Source: Candidatus Omnitrophota bacterium (lineage in GTDB: Bacteria; Omnitrophota; Gorgyraeia; Tantalellales; Tantalellaceae). Taken from it: DNA of 64,000 nucleotides. A program made the translations under genes and the position numbers. The notes below the pieces were generated by a model. That model was not told where the DNA came from. It saw nothing but the letters and a program-made list of their open reading frames with translations, and did not search any database. How positions within the stretch are numbered: position 1 is the stretch's first letter; each line of letters begins with the position of its first letter. The stretch spans positions 77,368 through 141,367 of the forward strand of contig JAQUQS010000002.1 in NCBI GenBank assembly GCA_028715965.1, read 5' to 3'. Positions 24,839 through 42,377 of this stretch are shown piece after piece.

Positions 24839-27319
24839 TCATTTGCCGCTTTTCTCCGGAACGGATTCCGTCACCCCTTCAAGGACGAACTCGAGTTCCT
24901 GTTTATTCTCCGGCAGAGTGACCTTTATCCGCGAACCGTCCTTGAAGGTCCCGGCGAGGATCTCTTCAGAAAGCGGGTTCTCCAGATAACGCTGTATGGT
25001 CCGCTTGAGCGGACGGGCGCCATAGGTCACGTCAAAACCTTTTTCTATCAAGAAGTCCTTTGCGGCGTTGTCCAGCACTATTTCCAGATGTTTCTCCCTC
25101 ACCCGGATCTGGACCTCCCTGACCTCTATCTCGACTATATGTTTCAGGTCTTCCCGGTTAAGGCTGTGGAACACTATCACGTCGTCCACCCTGTTCAGGA
25201 ACTCCGGTTTGAACGTTTTCTTCACCTCTTCCAAGAGCCTGCTTTTCATGTCCTTGTAGGTCTCGACCTCTTCCTGCGGCTTGAACCCGATAGACCCTGT
25301 CTTCTTCAAAAGTTCCGCTCCTATGTTCGACGTCATAATAAGTACCGTATTCTTGAAGCTGACCTTCCTGCCGTAGGAATCCGTAAGCCTTCCCTCGTCC
25401 AATACCTGCAGAAGTATGTTAAAGACATCCGGATGGGCCTTCTCTATCTCGTCAAGAAGCACCACCGAATAAGGTTTCCTGCGCACCCTTTCAGTAAGCT
25501 GTCCGCCTTCGTCATACCCGACATACCCGGGAGGCGCTCCCACAAGACGCGACACGTTGAACTTCTCCATGTATTCGGACATGTCTATCTGTATGACGGC
25601 GTCCTCGTCCCCGAACATCACTTCGGCAAGTTTGCGGCCAAGCAGGGTCTTGCCGACCCCGGTCGGGCCCAGGAATATAAAGGTGCCTATCGGCCTGTTC
25701 GGGTCCTTGATCCCGGCGCGCGAACGCCTGACGGCATGGGCTATAGCTGTTATGGCCTCATCCTGCCCCTGTACCCTTTTCGTGAGATGCTCTTCCAGTT
25801 TCAGGTATTTGTCGGACTCGGTCTCTTCCACCCTCACGAGAGGTATCCCGGTCCAGTTGGACACTATGTTCGCTATCTCTTCTTCCCCCACAACGATCTC
25901 CTGGTGCATCTGTCCGTTCTTCCACTTCTGCTGCTGCTCATCCAGCTGCTGGCGCGTAAGTCTTTCCGAGTCACGGAAACGCGCGGCTTTTTCAAAGTCC
26001 TGGGCCTTGACCGCGGCCTCTTTCTCAAGACGATATTTTTCGATCTGGTTCTCTATCTCCTTCATGTCCTTTGGCATGATCATCCTGGAAAGCTTTGCCT
26101 TAGAACCCGCTTCGTCGATAAGGTCTATGGCTTTATCGGGAAGGAACCTTCCGCTTATGTATTTATCGGAAAGTTTGGCCGCCGCCTCCAGCGCCTTGTC
26201 GGAAAAATTCACTTTATGGTGCGCCTCATATTTATCCCTTAAACCCCTCAATATCTGTATGGTCTCCTCCACCGTGGGAGGATCCACCATTACCGGCTGG
26301 AACCGTCTTTCCAGGGCCGGGTCTTTTTCTATGTTCTTCCTGTATTCGTCGAGCGTGGTGGCGCCTATGCACTGTATCTCCCCGCGTTGCAGTGACGGTT
26401 TCAGTATGTTGGACGCGTCTATGGCCCCTTCGGCCCCGCCCGCCCCCACAAGAGTGTGTATCTCGTCAATGAACACAATGACGTCGGGGGAGTCCTTTAT
26501 CTCCTTCATTATCGCTTTTATGCGTTCCTCGAACTGCCCCCTGTATTTGGTGCCCGCTATCATCATGGCAAGATCGAGGATAAGGAGCCTCCTGTCCTTC
26601 AATATTTCCGGCACATCTCCCGAATTTATCTTCTGGGCCAGTCCCTCCACGATAGCCGTCTTGCCTACCCCGGCTTCACCTATCAATATGGGGTTGTTCT
26701 TTTTTCTGCGGCCAAGTATCTGTATGACCCTCTCTATCTCCTTGTCCCGGCCTATTACAGGGTCCAGCTCGTCATGTCTGGCCATCTCCGTGAGGTCCCT
26801 CCCGAAAGAATCCAGAGCGGGCGTCTTTGTCTTTTTCTTGCGTTTCGCGTCCCCCGCCATGGAATAACCGGGGACAGACGAGCCCAGGAGGTTAAGCACC
26901 TCATCCCTCACGGTCTTAAGGTCAAGCCCCACGTTCAGGAGAACCTGGCTCGCCACGCCGTCACCCTCACGAATGAGCCCCAGGAGCAGGTGTTCCGTCC
27001 CTATGTAGTTGTGCCCGAGCGTCCTGGCCTCATCCATCGCCAGCTCAATGACCTTCTTGGCCCGCGGCGTGAAGGGGATATCCTTCTCGGCGCCGCCTTC
27101 GGTCCCGGGCTGCACGAGCTTTTCAACTTCCTGCCGAATATTGTCAGTGTCAAGCCCCAGGCTCGTGAGCACCGCGGCCGCGACACCTTCCCCTTCTTTT
27201 ATGAGCCCGAGAAGTATATGCTCGGTACCGATATATTCGTGGTTGAACCTTTTGGCCTCATCCTTGGCCAGAAGTATGACCTTTCTGGCGCGTTCAGTAA
27301 ATCTGTTAAAAGCGGGCAT
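24839..27319 (-). CDS. clpC: ATP-dependent Clp protease ATP-binding subunit ClpC
   Basis: Two Clp_N repeats, two AAA+ modules with Walker A/B, a UVR-like linker, and a ClpP-docking loop. Confidence 0.9.
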   Translation of the reverse strand: MPAFNRFTERARKVILLAKDEAKRFNHEYIGTEHILLGLIKEGEGVAAAVLTSLGLDTDNIRQEVEKLVQPGTEGGAEKDIPFTPRAKKVIELAMDEARTLGHNYIGTEHLLLGLIREGDGVASQVLLNVGLDLKTVRDEVLNLLGSSVPGYSMAGDAKRKKKTKTPALDSFGRDLTEMARHDELDPVIGRDKEIERVIQILGRRKKNNPILIGEAGVGKTAIVEGLAQKINSGDVPEILKDRRLLILDLAMMIAGTKYRGQFEERIKAIMKEIKDSPDVIVFIDEIHTLVGAGGAEGAIDASNILKPSLQRGEIQCIGATTLDEYRKNIEKDPALERRFQPVMVDPPTVEETIQILRGLRDKYEAHHKVNFSDKALEAAAKLSDKYISGRFLPDKAIDLIDEAGSKAKLSRMIMPKDMKEIENQIEKYRLEKEAAVKAQDFEKAARFRDSERLTRQQLDEQQQKWKNGQMHQEIVVGEEEIANIVSNWTGIPLVRVEETESDKYLKLEEHLTKRVQGQDEAITAIAHAVRRSRAGIKDPNRPIGTFIFLGPTGVGKTLLGRKLAEVMFGDEDAVIQIDMSEYMEKFNVSRLVGAPPGYVGYDEGGQLTERVRRKPYSVVLLDEIEKAHPDVFNILLQVLDEGRLTDSYGRKVSFKNTVLIMTSNIGAELLKKTGSIGFKPQEEVETYKDMKSRLLEEVKKTFKPEFLNRVDDVIVFHSLNREDLKHIVEIEVREVQIRVREKHLEIVLDNAAKDFLIEKGFDVTYGARPLKRTIQRYLENPLSEEILAGTFKDGSRIKVTLPENKQELEFVLEGVTESVPEKSGK

Positions 27320-27357
27320 GTTGTTCCTCCTTGGGTTACAACTGTTGTATTATCACG

Positions 27358-28410
27358 TTATTTCTCACTAAGTTTCATACGCACGAAATCCGCGCGTTTA
27401 ATATCCCTTTCGAACGGCTCTATCTTGTCATCGTTCATCATCTGCAGGTGCGCCGGCTGGGCATACACCAGTATACCGTTTATCTCCGACGGGCCTATCC
27501 CTTTTATGATGCCAAGGTCCATTCCCAACCGCACCGCGGAAAGAAGTTTTATGGCCTCGCGCGACGTTATTATCCTGACATCCTTGAGCGTGGAATACGA
27601 TAGGTTGATCTTTTCCGTAAGCTCGTTCTTCTTGTTCTTGATGAGCGCCTCTCTGGTCTCCCTTTCCTTTTCCACGATCTTCTTTATGACCCTCTCAAGG
27701 TTGCCCAGTATCCCCATCTCGGAATACCCCAGCGCTACCTGGTTGGATATCTGGAAAAAATCCCCCAGCGCTTCCGTTCCTTCGCCGTAAAAACCGCGTA
27801 TGGTCATGCCCAGCTTGGATATGGCGTCGAACACGTTCTCTATCTGCCCGGTCATGACAAGCCCCGAAAGATGGAGCATTACCGACGCTCTCAATCCCGT
27901 TCCCGTATTCGTCGGGCATGAAGTAAGATACCCGTACTTGGCGGAGAAATCGAACGGTATGTATTTCCCCAGGTCATTGTCTATTTCGTCGGCTATCCTC
28001 CACGCTTCCATGAGATCGAACCCCGACTTCAGGACCTGCATCCTGATATGGTCCTCCTCATTCAGCATTATGCTCGTTATCTCTTTGTCATCCACGACAA
28101 GGCCCTTGCTCTCGGCGTTCATGACGTGTTCCCGGCTTATAAGGTGCCTTTCGACAAGGAAATCCCTTTCCAGGGGAGAAATATCCCTCATCTTCAGAAA
28201 AAGAGAGTTACTCAAGAAGGCGCTTTTTTTCATCGCCCCCATCATCTTGTTCAGAATAGCTTCCCGCTGGTCCGCACCCGCTCTCGTGAAATATACCTCT
28301 CCTTTCACGTTACGCGCGAGCCTTATCCTGGTGGATATGGCGATATCCGACCCCGGGCCTTCGCCCCGCAGCCATTCACTTCCTCTTTTAAGCATTGTGT
28401 CAAGTTTCAT
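27358..28410 (-). CDS. mcsB: Protein-arginine kinase (ATP:guanido phosphotransferase)
   Basis: Phosphagen-kinase catalytic-domain motifs (CPTNTGTGLRAS) and an McsB-like length. Confidence 0.85.
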   Translation of the reverse strand: MKLDTMLKRGSEWLRGEGPGSDIAISTRIRLARNVKGEVYFTRAGADQREAILNKMMGAMKKSAFLSNSLFLKMRDISPLERDFLVERHLISREHVMNAESKGLVVDDKEITSIMLNEEDHIRMQVLKSGFDLMEAWRIADEIDNDLGKYIPFDFSAKYGYLTSCPTNTGTGLRASVMLHLSGLVMTGQIENVFDAISKLGMTIRGFYGEGTEALGDFFQISNQVALGYSEMGILGNLERVIKKIVEKERETREALIKNKKNELTEKINLSYSTLKDVRIITSREAIKLLSAVRLGMDLGIIKGIGPSEINGILVYAQPAHLQMMNDDKIEPFERDIKRADFVRMKLSEK

Positions 28411-33286: not shown

Positions 33287-33374
33287 AGATACACCTTTAC
33301 CCCTCTTTTCGCTAATATGTATTTATAATTATAATTTTAATAAGTCGAGCGGAAAATAATATATATGTAGTTGG

Positions 33375-33403
33375 ATTATAACTATAATACTCCCGCATGT
33401 CAA
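33375..33403 (-). promoter_or_regulatory. Consensus sigma70 promoter for lysS
   Basis: Minus strand TTGACA-N17-TATAAT. The -35 reverse complement is at 33398-33403 and the -10 at 33375-33380. An AT-rich leader of about 80 nt follows, with AGAGGGGTAAAGGTG as SD. Confidence 0.55.
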
Positions 33404-33505
33404 ACATATTAAGACCTTTATGGTAGTTCTCGCGGGTTATCCGGGCTTCACCTGAAGGGGGGGGCTACGCTTGGTTCCCGGTAAGCTGCTGGTATAGAAG
33501 AACGT

Positions 33506-36500
33506 TTACGCCTTGATTTCTATCTCACGCTCATGCCTGTCATACCTTCTGGACATCTTTTCGATCATATCCCTGTCTATCGGCACAAGCTCCACGGGGA
33601 ACTTCCTGAACCCCGGGTTCTCGCCGCCAAAAGCCTCTTTTACGGCTTCATCTATTACCTTGACGATATCAATATCCATGCAATAGGCCGGAGGTATCTT
33701 TTCAGGCACTTCGAGCTCGGCGAAGAACGCGCCGGGAGCGTCTTTCTGTTCCCGAAGAGGAGTGAACTCCCCGGCCCTGAGCACCCTGCCATCTCCCACG
33801 ACTATCATGTTCCTCAAAGGATTACGGGCGCGGTCCTTACGGTTCCTTTCGATGAGGGTGCCAGCCAATGCCGGGCCTTTATCCACGACCGTCACCACAT
33901 TGGTAAGACCTTTTTTCCTCCACACTCCTTCCCACCATGACTGGTTCGTCAATTTTCCCATACTGGCAAGTTCCGCCGGTGGTATCCAACTGGTATCTAT
34001 GCCTATAACTATGTTCTCGCCTTTTTCCGTCCTTGCGTACGCGTCCTCCGCGGCCGCGAAAACGCGCATCATCATGCCTCTTACACGTTCGGTATCGGCG
34101 TCGGGCTCGTCGGTAACGGCTTCCGCGGACTTATCTGCTGCGGCTGACACCCTATCCTGGACGGGTTCGCCCGTTCTCCTTCGGACCTCGTCTATAGCTA
34201 TCTCATATATGCGCCTGCGGGGCAATCTTGCGGTATCCCTGCCGGCGTCCCTTTCATCCTGGCCGAACACCAAAGCGCATCCCCTGATGATCTTATCCAG
34301 GTCCACGATCCTTTCCCTCGTGCTGAACGCCTTTTTGCCCCGCCTTATCTCCCCGAAATCCGACACATGCCTTATGTTCCCATCAGCGCAAAGCTTGAAA
34401 TTCCCTATATGCATCTCCGTATGCAATTTTCCGTCGTCGGCCTTCCTGAGCCCGTAATACCCGCTGTCGTGCATGTTCTCACATATCTCGAACACCTGCC
34501 GTACCATTCTTTCGGTAAAAGCGGCCGGGTCCATCCCCATACGTCCGGCGTAATATTTAAGATGTTCGGGACCGACATTGTCGAGTCTTACACCGTCATG
34601 ATATTCGTATACGATCATCCGGAAAGGTTTATCCGCGGTGTATTCAATATCGCCTTCCCACGCGTAATTCCTATAGGTCCCCGGCGGCAGGTCGACCACG
34701 CACACAACCCTTTCCACCCCTGACCGTTCACCGTAAGAACGCCACAGGTCCCGTGCTATATCGAAATTCGCGTACTGTATGTTCTGCCTCTGGTGCCCGG
34801 CCTCACCGGGTATCTTAAGCTCCAGGCTGAAAATACCGTTCGTAGCTATGTGCCGGCGGAACGACTGCGTGAACGACGTCCACCTGCATCCCGCCATTTC
34901 CCTGAAAAGACCTTTTCTCTCAGAATATGTGAGCGGCGTGTCCTCGGCAGTTTCCATGAGGTCATGTACCAGCGCGTACTCATAATATCCCATACCGGGC
35001 TTACGCGCGGCGAAAAGCGGGGCTAAAAGTCCGGCCACGCTGTCCTTCGTTGCCAGGGCCCTCAAAAGGCCCGGGAACTCCATTCGCATGAACGCGGAAG
35101 ACGCTGTGTCGAAGAACTCTATCACGACTTCTTGTGAACCGGTAACGGCCAGGCGCGTATCCTCGCTGGACCGTGCCTCTTCCACGGGAGGAGATAATGC
35201 CGTGATGACCGCCGGCAGGGCGGTCTTGATCCTGTCCTCATATTCCGGGCCAAGGTTGACCAGCCTGCCTTCGCGTATATGTTCGTTATGCAGGTACGTT
35301 CTATAAGCGACAAGGAACGGATGTTCCGTACCGTTGCTTTCCTCCAGTTCCCTCAGTTCATGTACGCGTTCCCTCAGTCTTTCCGGGGTAACCTCCTCAG
35401 GAGCGGTCTTAAAATGTATCCGCACGGCATCACGGAACAGGTCCCTCCCGTCCCGGAGAGAAAGCGTCCGCATCATTTCATCGTGATCCCCGCATACTAC
35501 ACGACCCTCATAAGCCAGATCGAACTGCCCGTAAGAAGCGTCCACCAGGAGCGCGGGGTGCTGCCCAGTGCCGTCATACACTGCCACCCAGTGGTGTGTT
35601 ATGATGCGTCCCGGAGCGTAAAAGGCGCCCGGCACCACTTCTATGCGCGCGCCTTTTTCTCCCCCTATGGGAAGACCGGATACATTCGAAAGCGCCAACG
35701 CCATTAATTTCGACGCGGCCACGCACCTCTGGCCGTTGGTCTCGGTAAAACCGTATCTTTCCAGTTCGGCATATATTTCCCGTGTATGTTTCGAAATGAT
35801 ATCAATGATGGACGCGGCAACGTTCCCGCTATCCGTGGAAGACACCTCATCCGGAATGTCCGCCGCTTCCCTGCCGAGTTCCTCTATCTTCCTGTTGTCG
35901 AACTTGTCCGTACCCAGGATGCTTATCGTCCCGTCATCGGCTATTTCGAGATAAAGCACTATGTTATATTCCCCGCGTATTACTCCCCTGGAACGACCGG
36001 CCAGGCGGTGTCTTATGTTAGAGGCAAGTTTCTCGTACGTCCCCGCGTCCAGCGCGTATCCCGTAGCCTCCACGCTTGTGGGCGCCTCTCCCATATCAAC
36101 CACGTTTATCCTCGACATGCCGCTTACCGGCCGCATTATCCTGACCCCGGTCGAGAACGTTTTAAGTGACATATACGCGAAAAGGTATAACATCTCCGGA
36201 AGGTCGGCAAGCGACGGCTGCACATATACCCCGCCCTCACCCCTGGGGCCGTGAACAACGTCATAAATGCTTACCCGCTCCGTAGCGCGTTCCGTACTTC
36301 CCGTCGCCCGGGTCCTGGCCACACGCGCCGGCCTGGGAGCCAGCTTGGGTTCGGTGATAACACGTACCCGGTCACTGCTGCCAGCCTTCCTCGATATTTT
36401 GCCCCGGGCCTCGACCGGGTCATCTTCCGCCAGGTAATATCTAAGAAGACATCCGGCCCCATCCTCTCCGTCGTACGGGATAAGCACCGTCTTCCCTTCC

Positions 36501-36883
36501 TTACGCAATCCGTCGATGTTATAACCGAATCTGTGTTCTCCGGGAAAAGCTCTATTGATCATTCCCTTGAGGATATATGGCGGTCTCCTCACGCCATGCT
36601 TTTCCAGTACACGTGCTATACGCGACTCCACACTTTCCCCGCCCCACTTTTCCCTGAAAACCTGTCTGGCGGCATCTGTCATTTCCGGGGTCCCGTCCAC
36701 TTCGAGACGCGTGCCCCGGTCTGTTACAACAGCTATCGGGGTGTCAGTACGTATGTTAGGCGACAATGACATGTTCCCGGCATAAGACACACTTATCCCG
36801 GGTGCGACCTGTGAAGTTTCCGTCAGGATGGATATGGACATCACAACGGAAATGATGGTTTTTCTTAATGTTATATGCGCCAT
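33506..36883 (-). CDS. Large secreted or membrane-anchored multidomain protein of unknown function (transglutaminase-like cysteine-protease motif set plus a kinase-like motif)
   Basis: The 1125-aa ORF has an N-terminal signal or anchor (TIISVVMSISILTETSQVAPG). A C...H...D set (GQRCVAASKLMALAL ... ITHHWVAVYDG ... LLVDASYGQFD) resembles the transglutaminase-like or papain-fold triad. LHTEMHIGNFKLCADGNIRHVSDFGEIRRG resembles a catalytic HxGN ... DFG loop. The gene has its own promoter and is flanked by AT-rich intergenic regions. Confidence 0.7.
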   Translation of the reverse strand: MAHITLRKTIISVVMSISILTETSQVAPGISVSYAGNMSLSPNIRTDTPIAVVTDRGTRLEVDGTPEMTDAARQVFREKWGGESVESRIARVLEKHGVRRPPYILKGMINRAFPGEHRFGYNIDGLRKEGKTVLIPYDGEDGAGCLLRYYLAEDDPVEARGKISRKAGSSDRVRVITEPKLAPRPARVARTRATGSTERATERVSIYDVVHGPRGEGGVYVQPSLADLPEMLYLFAYMSLKTFSTGVRIMRPVSGMSRINVVDMGEAPTSVEATGYALDAGTYEKLASNIRHRLAGRSRGVIRGEYNIVLYLEIADDGTISILGTDKFDNRKIEELGREAADIPDEVSSTDSGNVAASIIDIISKHTREIYAELERYGFTETNGQRCVAASKLMALALSNVSGLPIGGEKGARIEVVPGAFYAPGRIITHHWVAVYDGTGQHPALLVDASYGQFDLAYEGRVVCGDHDEMMRTLSLRDGRDLFRDAVRIHFKTAPEEVTPERLRERVHELRELEESNGTEHPFLVAYRTYLHNEHIREGRLVNLGPEYEDRIKTALPAVITALSPPVEEARSSEDTRLAVTGSQEVVIEFFDTASSAFMRMEFPGLLRALATKDSVAGLLAPLFAARKPGMGYYEYALVHDLMETAEDTPLTYSERKGLFREMAGCRWTSFTQSFRRHIATNGIFSLELKIPGEAGHQRQNIQYANFDIARDLWRSYGERSGVERVVCVVDLPPGTYRNYAWEGDIEYTADKPFRMIVYEYHDGVRLDNVGPEHLKYYAGRMGMDPAAFTERMVRQVFEICENMHDSGYYGLRKADDGKLHTEMHIGNFKLCADGNIRHVSDFGEIRRGKKAFSTRERIVDLDKIIRGCALVFGQDERDAGRDTARLPRRRIYEIAIDEVRRRTGEPVQDRVSAAADKSAEAVTDEPDADTERVRGMMMRVFAAAEDAYARTEKGENIVIGIDTSWIPPAELASMGKLTNQSWWEGVWRKKGLTNVVTVVDKGPALAGTLIERNRKDRARNPLRNMIVVGDGRVLRAGEFTPLREQKDAPGAFFAELEVPEKIPPAYCMDIDIVKVIDEAVKEAFGGENPGFRKFPVELVPIDRDMIEKMSRRYDRHEREIEIKA

Positions 36884-36917
36884 ATATTATTGTGGTCCGG
36901 AATTATAATAATTTTGA

Positions 36918-36947
36918 ATTATACCATAAGAAAGTTAGTTAGGTCAA
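36918..36947 (-). promoter_or_regulatory. Sigma70-like promoter for the 1125-aa protein gene
   Basis: Minus strand TTGACC-N18-TATAAT. The -35 reverse complement is at 36942-36947 and the -10 at 36918-36923. It lies about 35 nt upstream of the ATG at 36883. Confidence 0.5.
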
Positions 36948-36987
36948 TGGAGATCTATATCGTCGGTACGGACAGCTGTGTGACCGT

Positions 36988-37018
36988 AAAAAAAAAGGGA
37001 GGGTTTTAAACCCTCCCC
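36988..37018 (-). terminator. Rho-independent terminator of the small basic protein gene
   Basis: Minus strand GGGAGGGTTTAAAACCCTCCC (perfect 7-bp GC stem) is followed by TTTTTTTTT. It lies 25 nt after the stop of the 37043..37315 gene. Confidence 0.85.
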
Positions 37019-37042
37019 TTCGTACATGTTTTCCGCAAGACC

Positions 37043-37315
37043 TTACTTCTTTTTAGGTGACACCTTTTTCGTCTTGGTGACAGCCTTCTTCTTCGCGGCC
37101 TTGGCCGTTTTCTTGATAAGGTCCCTTATCTCAACGACGTTCAGCTTCTTGAGTTTCTTCTCTTCCATCCCCGACGCTACCAATCTCTTCTTCTGCGCTT
37201 TTATGCGCTGTCTTTTCTTGGCACCCGTCTTTTTGGGCCTGGTCCTGTAATTTTTACGGGGTTTCATCTGTATATCCTCCCTGTTGGACTTAATTACCGA
37301 TAACGAATAGTTCAA
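37043..37315 (-). CDS. Small lysine-rich basic protein (Rho_N / histone-H1-like DNA- or RNA-binding motif)
   Basis: The 74-90-aa product is about 35% Lys/Arg. The core LKKLNVVEIRDLIKKTAKAAKKKAVTKTKK resembles the Rho-N/SAP-like motif L..L.V.ELR.LAK found in H1-like bacterial nucleoid proteins. The probable start is MKPRKNYRTR. A strong terminator lies immediately downstream. Confidence 0.55.
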   Translation of the reverse strand: MNYSLSVIKSNREDIQMKPRKNYRTRPKKTGAKKRQRIKAQKKRLVASGMEEKKLKKLNVVEIRDLIKKTAKAAKKKAVTKTKKVSPKKK

Positions 37316-37361
37316 TTATTATACATAAAACACCGTTGTTTGCAACTTATTTGTTGCCACC

Positions 37362-38777
37362 TCATGCCTTTCCCAGGATACGATCGATAACATGTTTCTC
37401 TTCTTTGAGCGTTATACACATTATGCATATGTCATCCTTGAACGGGCCCGACTTGAAAGATTCCAGCTCGCCTATAAGAGCGCTGTTGAGCTCTTCAGAT
37501 GTGGACCTCGAATGCGCGGCCAGAAGGTCGCGCAATCTTTGTTCCCCGTACTGCTCACCTTTGGCATTGAACGTTTCGGTCACCCCATCGGTATATAAAA
37601 GTATCCTTTCCGAATGCCCTATATTTACCGAGTCCTGGTAAATACCATCGTCAACATACGGCAACCCCAGAAGTGACGTCTGCGCGGCCAATTCCCTCAT
37701 CCCACCCGTCGCGGGATCGATAACATACTGGGGAGGATGTCCATGGTTCGAATATTGCAGTTCCATTTTTTTCATGTCCAGAAGCCCGCAGAACGCGGTA
37801 AGGTACATATCCGAACCGGCGAAATCCTCTTTTATGAACTCATTGAGGTCCCTCATAAGGACACCGGGCTCCTTCCCCTCCTTTGCCATGCGTTCGAACT
37901 CGGCATGTATCCTGTTGACCAGAAGCGCCGCCGGCACGCCATGGCCTGTTATGTCGCTTATAACAAAGAGGAGCCTTTCCCCCGGAAGGAGCACATATTT
38001 CACATAATCCCCCCCGATATAATAGACCGGCACATAGTCAATGGAAACATCGAACTTACGGGTGCTGACGGAATGGGAGATGATGCTCTTATGTATCCTG
38101 GACGCGAGTTCCAGCTCCCTGTTCACCTGCTCGTTCCTGGACTCCACCTCTTTCAGGAGGAGAAAATTCTGTATGTCCCTGTTCATCTCATAACGACGCA
38201 CGGTGAAACAGATGATGAACGACATGAGAAGAAAGATGATACCGTTGAAATAAAGCTCGAATTCCGCCTCCGCTCCCTCGATCTGGAAAAGGAACATGCT
38301 GGTCATGAAATGCAACGTATATGCCATGAAATGCATGAAGCCGAGCACCACTGTCTCTGAAGGACGCCATGGTATCGTCACGGAGACAAGAAAGAAGGAA
38401 AAAACGAATAACGGCCCTATACCGGCCAGCATCGCTTCCTTGCCGGACTCATCGCCAAAAACAAGGTTGAGCTGGACCATGAGCGCCAGGAGGAAAGCCG
38501 TATACAGATAAACACTGAGCTTCGCCGAGAACAGCGACTTCGCCTTATTGCTTATGAAAAGCATTACCGCGCCGCCCAGGGCCAGCAGAAGACCCACCAA
38601 TATCTCTTCCGGTTTATACCCTTCGGGAAAGAACATGTAGTAGAGCGCGTCGACCACCAAATAGATACTTATCGTCAACCGGCACAAGAGGCCCATCCGG
38701 GACCTGATGAGACTGATATATCCCTGGATGAACTCATCCCTGAACTCAGCGGGTATCTCTTTTTGGAACGCCGGCAT
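37362..38777 (-). CDS. Membrane sensor PP2C-type (SpoIIE/RsbU family) serine phosphatase
   Basis: N-terminal multi-TM region followed by a PPM domain (IGGDYV ... ISDITGHGVPAALL ... YTDGVTE). Confidence 0.8.
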   Translation of the reverse strand: MPAFQKEIPAEFRDEFIQGYISLIRSRMGLLCRLTISIYLVVDALYYMFFPEGYKPEEILVGLLLALGGAVMLFISNKAKSLFSAKLSVYLYTAFLLALMVQLNLVFGDESGKEAMLAGIGPLFVFSFFLVSVTIPWRPSETVVLGFMHFMAYTLHFMTSMFLFQIEGAEAEFELYFNGIIFLLMSFIICFTVRRYEMNRDIQNFLLLKEVESRNEQVNRELELASRIHKSIISHSVSTRKFDVSIDYVPVYYIGGDYVKYVLLPGERLLFVISDITGHGVPAALLVNRIHAEFERMAKEGKEPGVLMRDLNEFIKEDFAGSDMYLTAFCGLLDMKKMELQYSNHGHPPQYVIDPATGGMRELAAQTSLLGLPYVDDGIYQDSVNIGHSERILLYTDGVTETFNAKGEQYGEQRLRDLLAAHSRSTSEELNSALIGELESFKSGPFKDDICIMCITLKEEKHVIDRILGKA

Positions 38778-38972
38778 CCTGCTCCTTTTATTGATATGGG
38801 ATCACGCGAATATGGCTTTGTTAAATGAAAATAGCACAATAATCGCCTTATTTCAAGCTTATGCGTGATTTCCTTTCCCCAAAATCTCTTGCTTTTGGCC
38901 CCTGTTTGAAATATGATTACTTAAGCACCGTCTTCACCCGTTAGTGTTCTCATAAGACGTAATGATGCGGAC

Positions 38973-40705: not shown

Positions 40706-41469
40706 GGTTCGCACGCGGATTGAAACATATGCTCATGAACACATACTCCCCGCTCATACTCCTGGTACTGTGGGAAGTGTCCGTAAGATGTGGATTCGTG
40801 AACAGCATATTCATCCCTACCCCTTCTTCCCTCTTCTCCGAGTTCTCCCGTCTCGTCCTTGCTGGCACATTGGCAAAAGATTGCGGCATAAGCCTTATGC
40901 GCATACTCGCGGGACTCGTAGTGGGCGGCCTGCCCGGCCTTATCCTCGGCGTTTTCATGGGCCGGAAAAGGTCCGTATATCTCTTCATGAACCCGCTTGT
41001 GAACATGGCCTATCCGGTACCCAAAATAGCCTTGATCCCGTTCATAATACTCATGCTTGGCATCGGGGAAGCTTCAAAGATAACCGTTATCGCCCTCGGG
41101 GCTTTTTTCATAATGCTTATAAATACATGCCACGGCGTATCCTCTATTGATCGCCGGTATTTCGATGTGGCCCGGGTCTATAAGTTCTCCGCCATGGACA
41201 GATGGCTGGATATCATCATTCCCGCGTCCATGCCTTCCATGTTCAACGGGATAAGGCTCTCATCCGGGCTGTGCTTTTCACTGGTAGTGGCCGCTGAGTT
41301 CATCGGCGGGTCATCAGGGATAGGCTACAGGCTTTGGACATCATGGGAGGCTTTTGATATAAAACGCATGTTCGTCTCGCTAATAGTGATATCCCTTATG
41401 GGATGGGCCTTCAACGCGATCATAGACATGATCGGAGAGCGCGCCATGCCCTGGAAGGCCCGGACTTAG
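40702..41469 (+). CDS. ABC transporter permease (SsuC/TauC-like, BPD_transp_1)
   Basis: Six TM helices with a conserved EAA-like loop. Overlaps the ATPase gene by 4 nt. No substrate-binding protein gene lies nearby. Confidence 0.8.
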   Translation: MRFARGLKHMLMNTYSPLILLVLWEVSVRCGFVNSIFIPTPSSLFSEFSRLVLAGTLAKDCGISLMRILAGLVVGGLPGLILGVFMGRKRSVYLFMNPLVNMAYPVPKIALIPFIILMLGIGEASKITVIALGAFFIMLINTCHGVSSIDRRYFDVARVYKFSAMDRWLDIIIPASMPSMFNGIRLSSGLCFSLVVAAEFIGGSSGIGYRLWTSWEAFDIKRMFVSLIVISLMGWAFNAIIDMIGERAMPWKART

Positions 41470-42377
41470 CGGAACTCGCCGCGTTCCCTGCCCTCAAGGT
41501 ATCTTCTTCTCACAAGCCAGTTAAAAATGATGTAGAACGGGGCGAAGATCATTCTCAGGCACAACGCGGTCCTTGATACGGTCTTTACCTCGGCATCTGA
41601 TGGGACATATTCCTCCTCAAGAAGGTCTGCCGGGCACCTCTTTTCCCCGCCAGGGGCCGCAATATCCATTCCTCTTTTCTTTATTCCATCCTCCACTACG
41701 CCCCTTATCACCGGCATCATCATCTCTACATACTTCGCGACCGTCCCTTCACGCGTAGCCGCCGGGCTCACGCGCTGTCTTAAGTTCGAAAAGAACGTGA
41801 ACCAGCACAACGGCTGTATGTATTTAGTGCTAAAGACCTCGAACCCGGTCCTGTACCCTTTATCCTTGAGGTATTTCCTGGTTTTGACATTGAGATCATA
41901 TATCGGATTGATGAACTCCAGCCCATATCCGTGATACAGTCCCCTTATGGCGTTTATGAACCCGACCTTATGGGAACTATGGTGATACTCCGCCCTTGTG
42001 GCCCCGTCCGCGCATACCGTGATCCCGTGTTCCAGGCAGTACAATATTGACGCGGCGCGCATGGAAAGCTGGCAGGTACAGCACCACATCCCCAGGGGGG
42101 ACCATTCACTCCCGAACGAAGCGCAGTTCTCAGGATATTTTTCAAGCAGTTTTTTCTGCACGCCCCTTATGTCCACTATTTTGTGCACGAACTTAGTATC
42201 CGGGTGTTCCCGTTCGAGATGCGCCAGGTTGCTCCGGGAAAGTCCCAGGAACACCTCCGTCAGCACCCTGAATGTGACAAGATGTACTTCTTTTGCCTTG
42301 CCGGCCAGTACGGTGGCCGCGGTGAGGGAATCGTATCCTCCTGAAAAATTAAGCATGACCTTATCTATATTTCGCAT
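41466..42377 (-). CDS. PP-loop ATP pyrophosphatase superfamily protein (adenine nucleotide alpha-hydrolase-like)
   Basis: N-terminal VMLNFSGGYDS (SGGxDS PP-loop) in a QueC/TtcA-like arrangement (KEVHLVTF). Internal Cys cluster WCCTC...C. C-terminal hydrophobic helix. The 5' end overlaps the upstream radical SAM gene by 17 nt. Confidence 0.65.
   Translation of the reverse strand: MRNIDKVMLNFSGGYDSLTAATVLAGKAKEVHLVTFRVLTEVFLGLSRSNLAHLEREHPDTKFVHKIVDIRGVQKKLLEKYPENCASFGSEWSPLGMWCCTCQLSMRAASILYCLEHGITVCADGATRAEYHHSSHKVGFINAIRGLYHGYGLEFINPIYDLNVKTRKYLKDKGYRTGFEVFSTKYIQPLCWFTFFSNLRQRVSPAATREGTVAKYVEMMMPVIRGVVEDGIKKRGMDIAAPGGEKRCPADLLEEEYVPSDAEVKTVSRTALCLRMIFAPFYIIFNWLVRRRYLEGRERGEFR

Follow-up and report, generated by a model that had tools for sequence, protein, structure and literature searches.

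The stretch analysed here (the window) comprises 64,000 nt of contig JAQUQS010000002.1 from a metagenome-assembled genome (MAG) of Candidatus Omnitrophota (GCA_028715965.1), and contains an open reading frame (ORF) for an 1125-amino-acid (aa) protein that has been deposited as a hypothetical protein. On balance, we lean towards the view that this protein is a compact (1.1-kaa) member of a mosaic multi-enzyme family restricted to Omnitrophota, and that it is exported with a cargo that acts outside the cytoplasm of the producer. Members of the family would be built from a constant head, consisting of a Sec-type signal peptide, an LSPxSR motif and a domain of ~130 aa, and a constant tail, consisting of an alpha/beta domain of ~200 aa that mostly ends in Ala or Ala-Ala, with a few hundred to ~6,000 residues of interchangeable enzyme modules between the two ends. 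The cargo of the 1125-aa protein would be module B (residues 196-344), a domain with Cys387, His430 and Asp448 and a kinase-like domain (K690, E823, N828 and D842). Coordinates of these and other features are given in Table 1.

The ORF is real. Its product, which is deposited on a contig of 214 kb, was found with 0-2 substitutions in two NCBI MAGs and two Logan assemblies, and its recurrence in four independent assemblies excludes a fusion created by assembly, which a first-pass annotation of this DNA had named as one way in which its interpretation could fail. The annotation had also described the ORF as the largest in the window, which is correct (ClpC, at 826 aa, is second), and the motifs that it quoted (GQRCVAASKLM, ITHHWVAVYD, LLVDASYGQFD, LHTEMHIGNF and DGNIRHVSDFGEI) are all where it had put them. 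Its observations as a whole were therefore confirmed; what it missed was the best classifying feature, the N- and C-terminal modules that the protein has in common with Omnitrophota mosaic proteins. Searched as a whole, the 1125-aa protein had no match in Pfam, NCBIfam, PADLOC or the PDB sequences, a word-indexed search of 5.8 billion clusters returned the protein itself and nothing else, and no relatives came up when genomes were scanned with peptide patterns of the whole protein. An artefact of assembly or annotation, or a set of fortuitous motifs, might give the same picture. This explanation is already refuted by the recurrence of the ORF across the four assemblies, by 180 HMMER relatives in which the motif residues are invariant and by confident AlphaFold 2 (AF2) models for two of the modules, and we consider its probability to be practically nil.

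Table 1. Features of the 1125-aa ORF and its upstream region. Nucleotide positions are those of the window.
Feature	Residues	Position	Strand	Remarks
1125-aa ORF with stop codon	1-1125	33506..36883	(-)	ATG start; MDD5487660.1, hypothetical protein, Candidatus Omnitrophota MAG
Predicted Sec-type signal peptide	1-35	36779..36883	(-)	n-region HITLRK, h-region TIISVVMSISIL, long c-region ending VSYA↓GN; from family alignment
N module	36-195	36299..36778	(-)	LSPxxR motif (MSLSPNIRT) and ~130-aa domain (KEGKT..IPY, LRYYL..D.P.EA.GK)
Module B	196-344	35852..36298	(-)	Uncharacterised; two internal homologs only
Module C, papain/transglutaminase-like Cys-His-Asp domain	345-575	35159..35851	(-)	Followed by helical subdomain
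Cys387, candidate nucleophile	387	35723..35725	(-)	First turn of helix 384-402 (GQRCVAASKLM from residue 384)
His430, invariant	430	35594..35596	(-)	In beta-strand; H-x-W motif (ITHHWVAVYD from 428)
Asp448, invariant	448	35540..35542	(-)	End of next beta-strand; LLVDxSYGQF (LLVDASYGQFD from 445)
Module D, atypical protein-kinase-like domain	585-880	34244..35131	(-)	SFRRH 674-678, ELKIPG with K690, hinge-like YEYHDGVRL
Catalytic-loop equivalent, E823-M-H-I-G-N828	823-828	34400..34417	(-)	LHTEMHIGNF from 820; family consensus D-x-H-x-x-N
DFG equivalent, D842-F-G844	842-844	34352..34360	(-)	DGNIRHVSDFGEI from 834; Asp invariant
Module E, C-terminal alpha/beta domain (Rossmann/flavodoxin-like)	905-1125	33509..34171	(-)	GIDTSWIP motif; terminal helix ...EIEIKA-COOH
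Sigma-70-like promoter, TTGACC-N18-(TG)TATAAT		36918..36947	(-)	34 nt 5' of ATG; 11/12 consensus matches; consensus match only
Intrinsic terminator of upstream 74-aa gene		36993..37021	(-)	13-bp stem; from scan

A mosaic family with constant ends

An exhaustive HMMER scan of 1.84 billion representatives (E <= 1e-3) gave 180 relatives, each of which aligned to only a part of the query. The best 149 of these 180 matches were re-mapped locally, and this resolved the query into five modules, N, B, C, D and E. Module B had 2 matches, C had 20 (up to three copies per protein), D had 70 (up to four copies) and E had 69, while residues ~10-195, covering the N module, matched 18 proteins with phmmer and 50 with a hidden Markov model (HMM). 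When the module HMMs were applied to the 149 proteins, E was detected in 72, N in 50 and both in 47, and the two end modules kept to fixed positions: the match to N began no later than residue 22 of the target in 48 of 50 proteins, and the match to E ended 8 residues or fewer from the C-terminus in 70 of 72. The proteins with both ends were 589-6685 aa long (n=47), and relatives were generally of 0.6-7.6 kaa. Between N and E, they carried HATPase_c, HisKA, methyltransferase, GNAT, PAS, GGDEF, EAL, REC, PTS-EIIA, PPDK_N, GDPD, patatin and DOT1 domains and HEAT repeats. A conserved Y-x-x-Q-x-x-x-[IL]-x-x-A helix led to a terminal Ala in 59 of the 69 E-bearing proteins and to Ala-Ala in 30 of the 69; the query itself ends ...EIEIKA. 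A scan of GTDB species genomes with an 8-row alignment of E located 19 loci, at 18 of which E closes an ORF of between 683 and more than 3495 aa, the 19th being cut by a contig end. Two MAGs hold two E-bearing genes each.

Omnitrophota is the label of 11 of these 19 loci, and the other eight (L002, L004, L006, L012, L013, L014, L016 and L018) are labelled 'uncultured Planctomycetia'. The latter label is probably a taxonomy artefact, since L012 and L018 have a gene order in common with loci labelled Omnitrophota and their PurB proteins are 73-80% identical. Named homologs were all from Omnitrophota, with the exception of one partial protein from a bin labelled Elusimicrobia that has C and D modules only. 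The LysS protein of the window was 100% identical to a protein of an Omnitrophota MAG, and its next-best named relatives (64-80% identity) were again all from this phylum. Judged from these sequence comparisons, the family is confined to Omnitrophota, and at this level we regard three things as established: homology by modules, the fixed placement of the end modules and the restriction to one phylum.

With regard to the end modules themselves, a profile search found no relative of the N module in the PDB or Pfam, and module E had no match in Pfam or the PDB sequences. Modules C and E both gave confident AF2 models, and the fold class of E is Rossmann-like, with E being a new terminal domain of this class. 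The conserved positions of E are mostly hydrophobic or Gly (G-I-D-T-S-W-I-P, N..LG and AFFA), and the Asp is not invariant, which favours a role in structure or recognition over one in catalysis. As a speculation, the conserved Ala terminus could be a ligand of a PDZ-type protease or of a secretion component. In a word-indexed search with the E profile the only match was P0152 (JGI, 254 aa), an E-module fragment that carries the name 'stalled ribosome alternative rescue factor ArfA'; this name is probably a misannotation and could spread to other members of the family.

The Cys-His-Asp and kinase-like modules

The first-pass annotation had noted an ordered Cys, His, Asp set resembling that of transglutaminase-like or papain-fold enzymes, and this was borne out by the conservation of the triad in 20 homologs and by the predicted fold. 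At 15-30% identity, H430, W432, D448 and G419 are invariant among these homologs and C387 is present in every complete row, and the family has the signatures LPIGG, RIEvvPG, HxWxAvY and lliDxSYGQF. The AF2 model made with the family alignment (predicted local distance difference test, 91.8; predicted template-modelling score, 0.88) has C387 (model residue 43) in helix 40-58, H430 in strand 82-93, within a beta-hairpin that follows a long helix, and D448 at the end of strand 101-104, with an order and spacing of C-x42-H-x17-D. A layout of helix-Cys, strand-His and strand-Asp, together with the invariance of these residues, points to the papain/transglutaminase arrangement, and the model is structurally similar to solved members of the papain/TGc superfamily. 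The Cys at the N-terminus of a helix and the His and Asp on consecutive strands are common to APC5867/Atu2299 (PDB 2HLY), LapG (BTLCP), the SseI/PMT deamidases, TglA, PeiW and the arylamine N-acetyltransferases; 2HLY has a Ser as the nucleophile, whereas the module C family has Cys. Module C differs from all of these in its own signatures, in its C-terminal helical subdomain and in having no sequence-profile match to a member of any Pfam clan or to a PDB chain. Its profile found nothing meaningful among the PDB sequences, and the query and its 20 homologs matched no Pfam family (PF01841 and the Peptidase_CA clan included) other than one LRAT match at E 0.1. From the model, we interpret module C as a new and distant offshoot of the papain/TGc superfamily in which the triad is intact; its specific activity may be that of a protease, deamidase, transglutaminase or acyltransferase.

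A kinase-like HxGN...DFG motif had also been proposed, and in profile comparisons this motif does fall in register on the protein-kinase catalytic loop and DFG, with Glu823 at the position of the catalytic Asp. Across 27 homologs of module D, R627, R677, G693, Y740, R766, N828 and D842 are invariant and S674, F675, R676 and H678 (SFRRH) and F843 nearly so, and the consensus of the loop is T-D-x-H-x-x-N, followed by V-x-D-F-G. The invariance of N828 and D842 here, and the retention of C387, H430 and D448 in all complete rows of the 20 module C homologs, speak against fortuitous motif matches, a concern that the first-pass annotation had itself raised. When the module D profile was searched against the PDB sequences, 57 of the 60 top matches were protein kinases (each with E 0.1-0.9), and the alignments put the D/E, N and DFG of module D on the HRD, N and DFG of the kinases. 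In local hhalign comparisons, module D matched a small profile of six kinases (PKA, CDK2, p38, PknB, Src and ERK2, the sequences of which were entered by hand) with a probability of 82.6% (P 9.6e-6, 134 collinear columns), or of 80.5% when all 71 D sequences were used (P 1.3e-5, 175 columns); as controls, the same kinase profile gave P values of 0.93, 0.48 and 0.70 with modules C, E and N respectively. This alignment sets ELK690IPG on the VAIK strand and YEYHDGVRL on the hinge, with the catalytic loop and DFG in register.

Other routes to the kinases were less productive. A thin profile of two kinases reached a probability of only 24% against module D in hhalign, three module D members matched Pfam ABC1 (PF03109) weakly (E 0.02-0.07), and module D was below threshold for every Pfam kinase model. 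With an HMM of two kinase sequences, none of the hit proteins showed a canonical kinase domain, and the module D HMM did not reach the canonical Pfam Pkinase segment of P0004, so that there was no transitive link by HMMER. In the profile alignments, module D is collinear with the protein-kinase-like superfamily over the beta3 strand (ELKIPG for VAIK), the hinge (YEYxDGxRL), the alphaE helix, the D/E-x-x-x-x-N loop and DFG, and it differs from protein kinases in the missing Gly-rich loop, in a Lys that is not universal and, in the query, in Glu823. We interpret module D, from its sequence profile, as related to the protein kinases with the metal-binding residues kept. The module also occurs in separate proteins of ~900-1100 aa (P0035, P0036, P0040, P0052, P0068, P0077 and P0083), and in this second recurrent architecture the E module is missing and ~50 residues separate module D from the C-terminus.

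A number of these findings weigh against a protein that works through its enzyme modules. The catalytic Asp of module D is replaced by Glu in the query and in 2 others of the 27 members, which leaves the catalytic activity of the query module uncertain; the module D family has no GxGxxG motif, its near-invariant SFRRH precedes the strand instead, and some members have V, I or F at the position of the beta3 Lys. The kinase-like fold of module D is deduced at the level of profiles. For module C, the structural check proposed in the first-pass annotation had a divided outcome: the AF2 model has the papain/TGc layout, and a Foldseek search of the PDB with this model gave nothing significant, vasohibins, PeiW, TglA and staphopain being among the weak matches. 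The structural neighbours of module E are generic Rossmann-like proteins only and none of its polar residues is invariant, so any role for it is a guess. One explanation would be a scaffold or adhesin with little catalytic function, in which module D is a pseudokinase and the main function is one of binding or of a coat, as in the giant Omnitrophota proteins; coat or adhesion roles are proposed for giant ORFs in the literature, including PMC10066038. The substitution by E823, the missing Gly-rich loop and the variable beta3 Lys would all be expected from it. It would not account for the invariant metal ligands N828 and D842, for the near-invariant arginines of SFRRH, or for C387, H430 and D448, which are strictly kept at 15-30% identity in a manner typical of active enzymes, and we therefore consider a scaffold to be quite unlikely.

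Proposed export and the probable site of action

Export is suggested by the N-terminal architecture of the family. Homologs of the N module start with a K/R-rich n-region and a hydrophobic core of ~12 residues, followed by an NN[IF][ST][FY]A site with small residues at -3/-1, as in signal-peptidase I sites; a T-L-S-P-x-S-R-F motif and then the ~130-aa domain come after this site. The query site, VSYA35↓GN, aligns with that of the homologs after a nine-residue insertion, and there is no lipobox Cys in the query N-terminus. An N-terminal hydrophobic segment is present in 38 of the 47 members with both ends; internal segments of this kind are rare (0.6 per 1000 aa) and absent from the query. The start codon bears on this interpretation. 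PGAP calls for the gene conflict, with M1 chosen in MDD5487660.1 and M15 in MDD4956424.1 (window 36841-36883, (-)), and a start at M15 would strip the putative signal peptide of its n-region and half of its h-region. There is no Shine-Dalgarno sequence before the ATG of the ORF, and the alignment of homologs favours M1. Secretion of the query is plausible from these comparisons, with the signal being weak in the query itself.

We propose that the 1125-aa protein would be exported by Sec and its signal peptide cut after Ala35, and that the constant ends may serve export, anchoring, retention, recognition or delivery. The Cys-His-Asp module would then modify proteins outside the producer covalently, through proteolysis, deamidation or cross-linking, and the kinase-like module would do so through transfer of a phosphoryl or nucleotidyl group. 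The most likely site of action would be on or in a host or prey cell to which the episymbiotic bacteria attach, given the predatory or episymbiotic lifestyle described for Omnitrophota (PMC10066038). Cargo of the family that needs ATP, GTP, S-adenosylmethionine (SAM) or acetyl-CoA could, if exported, work only in the cytoplasm of another cell, and action there would be in keeping with an attached life as predators or parasites, which has been proposed for the phylum (PMC10066038).

Several points count against export. The N-terminal hydrophobicity of the query is feeble, with a best 19-residue Kyte-Doolittle mean of 1.41, and its 15-residue maximum of 1.63 is the second lowest when ranked with the 47 both-end members; the M15 start called by PGAP falls inside the h-region. 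Support for export comes from sequence comparison. Much of the family cargo that requires ATP, GTP, SAM or acetyl-CoA is of a classically cytoplasmic kind (PAS, GGDEF, EAL, HisKA/HATPase, REC, PTS-EIIA and metabolic enzymes), and no secretion-system genes were found in the 64-kb window or beside the related loci examined, where the neighbours are housekeeping genes.

Another possibility is that the protein is a regulatory multi-enzyme that is cytoplasmic or tethered to the inner membrane, with an N-terminal stretch that is an uncleaved anchor or has no function, and that its kinase-like and Cys-His-Asp modules act on the cell's own proteins, perhaps together with a neighbouring membrane PP2C protein. 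The dominance of cytoplasmic signalling and metabolic domains in the family cargo is what this would predict, as are the weak h-region and alternative annotated start of the query and the housekeeping surroundings of the gene, in which secretion genes are lacking; two genes upstream there is a SpoIIE/PP2C gene, and a membrane-anchored cytoplasmic interpretation is discussed for many long Omnitrophota proteins by Nielsen & Lui (2026). The positive n-regions, short h-regions (~12 residues) and conserved A/S-x-A sites of the homologs, on the other hand, point to Sec signals that are cleaved and to a protein that is mostly outside. The PP2C partner is found at 0 of the 19 related loci and is also absent beside lysS in three related genomes, and in the window a further gene, which ends in a strong terminator of its own, stands between it and the ORF. 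We regard the cytoplasmic regulatory enzyme as a serious but rather improbable alternative; as to the side of the membrane alone, we judge export to be about twice as probable as a cytoplasmic location, because of the conserved n-h-c/AxA architecture.

Genomic setting and known systems

The first-pass annotation had placed a TTGACC-N18-TATAAT promoter and the strong terminator of the neighbouring gene just upstream of the ORF, and both were recovered by scanning, with the addition of a TG extension to the promoter. The terminator of the 74-aa gene sets the 1125-aa ORF apart as a transcription unit of its own. The neighbours that had been described, a Lys-rich protein of 74 aa and a SpoIIE/PP2C protein (PF07228, E 3e-42), are likewise present, and the N-terminal half of the latter has no Pfam match. 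The 74-aa protein (37043-37267, (-)) is extremely rich in Lys, and its gene has a strong Shine-Dalgarno sequence and a promoter-like site of its own (37345..37318); it has no Pfam match, and identical copies are on record in no genomes other than the two NCBI MAGs with the 1125-aa gene. Downstream, the next gene is lysS, which is preceded by a perfect 12/12 sigma-70 consensus (TTGACA-17-TATAAT, 33375-33403 (-)), and there is no terminator-like site between the stop codon of the 1125-aa ORF and this promoter.

The window is of a housekeeping character throughout, with lolC/E-lolD, an aminotransferase, McsB, ClpC, MlaEFD, cysS, holB and menaquinone, isoprenoid and redox genes; no tRNA or Rfam element is nearby, and the window has no N, C, D or E modules besides those of the 1125-aa ORF. 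The block lysS-lolCE-lolD-aminotransferase-McsA-McsB-ClpC-Mla is kept in three related Omnitrophota contigs (LysS 77-80% identical), and synteny breaks directly upstream of lysS (window ~33290-38780 compared with L022, L023 and L024), where the relatives carry polX and ligA. The 1125-aa, 74-aa and PP2C genes are therefore lineage-specific genes at a synteny breakpoint. Comparison of what homologs neighbour, another check that had been suggested, did not yield a partner: four other E-bearing genes have a purine-biosynthesis neighbourhood in common, as orthologous loci, and across the 19 loci no secretion, immunity or PP2C partner recurs beside the E-bearing genes.

Two further features of the window are noted. 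A gene for a McsB-type protein-arginine kinase (PF00217) lies with that for ClpC (24839-28410 (-) and flanks) between the Lol and Mla genes, and in relatives a UVR-motif gene, presumably McsA, occupies the matching position of this block. The McsB/ClpC stress-degradation module is best known from Firmicutes, and its presence in a diderm lineage is hence worth noting. A radical-SAM (HemN-like) gene and a gene for an ABC transporter permease flank an ORF of 303 aa (41466-42377 (-)) that matches nothing in Pfam.

Fixed ends around exchangeable enzymes have a parallel in MARTX toxins, in which conserved N- and C-terminal regions surround a variable array of effector domains and which have RTX glycine-rich repeats, an internal cysteine protease domain (CPD) and export by a type I secretion system (T1SS). 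The two have in common the constant ends, the exchangeable internal enzymes and a cargo that needs cytoplasmic cofactors, which would point to action inside another cell. The query has no RTX-type repeats and no inositol-phosphate-activated CPD (it has no Pfam match at all), the window has no T1SS genes, and the ends of the query family are a Sec signal and globular domains; the likeness is one of logic and there is no homology.

The first-pass annotation had drawn its own parallel, with polymorphic toxins, and although both of its domain calls held, this analogy failed in its details. Polymorphic toxins have a secretion-related constant part and C-terminal toxin modules, followed by immunity genes. 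A polymorphic toxin of the classical kind, or a contact-dependent effector, paired with a cognate immunity protein would account for the modular, swappable architecture of the family, which also has a constant part joined to exchangeable enzymes, and papain-fold toxin domains are among the structural neighbours. The variable parts here are internal and both termini are constant; the gene downstream is lysS rather than an immunity gene, no small conserved partner gene accompanies the family across the 19 loci, and there is no match to PADLOC or to a toxin Pfam family. We consider this explanation to be very improbable.

The closest relatives in kind are other Omnitrophota proteins, as mosaic long proteins of this phylum are a class that is already known. 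Giant proteins of the 'Archaeovorin' type have been reported (West-Roberts et al. 2023, bioRxiv 10.1101/2023.11.21.568195), and a 'multi-enzyme' class and a Pfam module 1 have been defined for long Omnitrophota proteins (Nielsen & Lui 2026, bioRxiv 10.64898/2026.06.07.730766). The giant proteins have in common with our family the phylum, a beads-on-a-string arrangement of enzymes, a cargo that in relatives of the query includes HATPase_c, methyltransferase, GNAT, PPDK_N, GGDEF and HEAT, and N-terminal signal peptides, which are common among them as in the N-module family. The giant proteins studied there are of 10-147 kaa and mostly have many transmembrane helices, whereas the query is of 1.1 kaa, its relatives are of 0.6-7.6 kaa and internal hydrophobic segments are few or absent; constant N and C modules and an Ala C-terminus are not described in the passages of these papers that were searched, and no locus resembling a type II secretion system is adjacent to the 1125-aa ORF. 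In the parts of the literature that were searched, we did not find the rule that N and E bookend the protein, the Ala C-terminus, members of ~1 kaa, or the papain/TGc-like and kinase-like cargo families.

A tentative extension of our proposal, which we think possible but doubtful, is that N and E together form a phylum-specific chassis for export or delivery, such that any enzyme can be spliced between the head and the Ala-terminated tail, and stepwise insertion of cargo builds proteins of many kiloresidues, perhaps including the giant ones. If this were true, the 1.1-kaa protein would be a minimal, tractable version of the chassis with two previously undescribed families of effector enzymes. 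Omnitrophota are uncultured, ultra-small and probably predatory or parasitic, and the size and poor annotation of their giant mosaic proteins have stood in the way of studying them. The 1125-aa protein shows that the same building logic, in which exchangeable enzymes are set between a constant head and a constant tail, also exists in a protein of ordinary length, and it supplies four sequence-dark modules, of which two have confident models (C and E) and one has a profile-level link to the kinases. As a member of 1.1 kaa, it can be cloned, localised and assayed, and it provides a tractable entry point to an open problem rather than a new principle.

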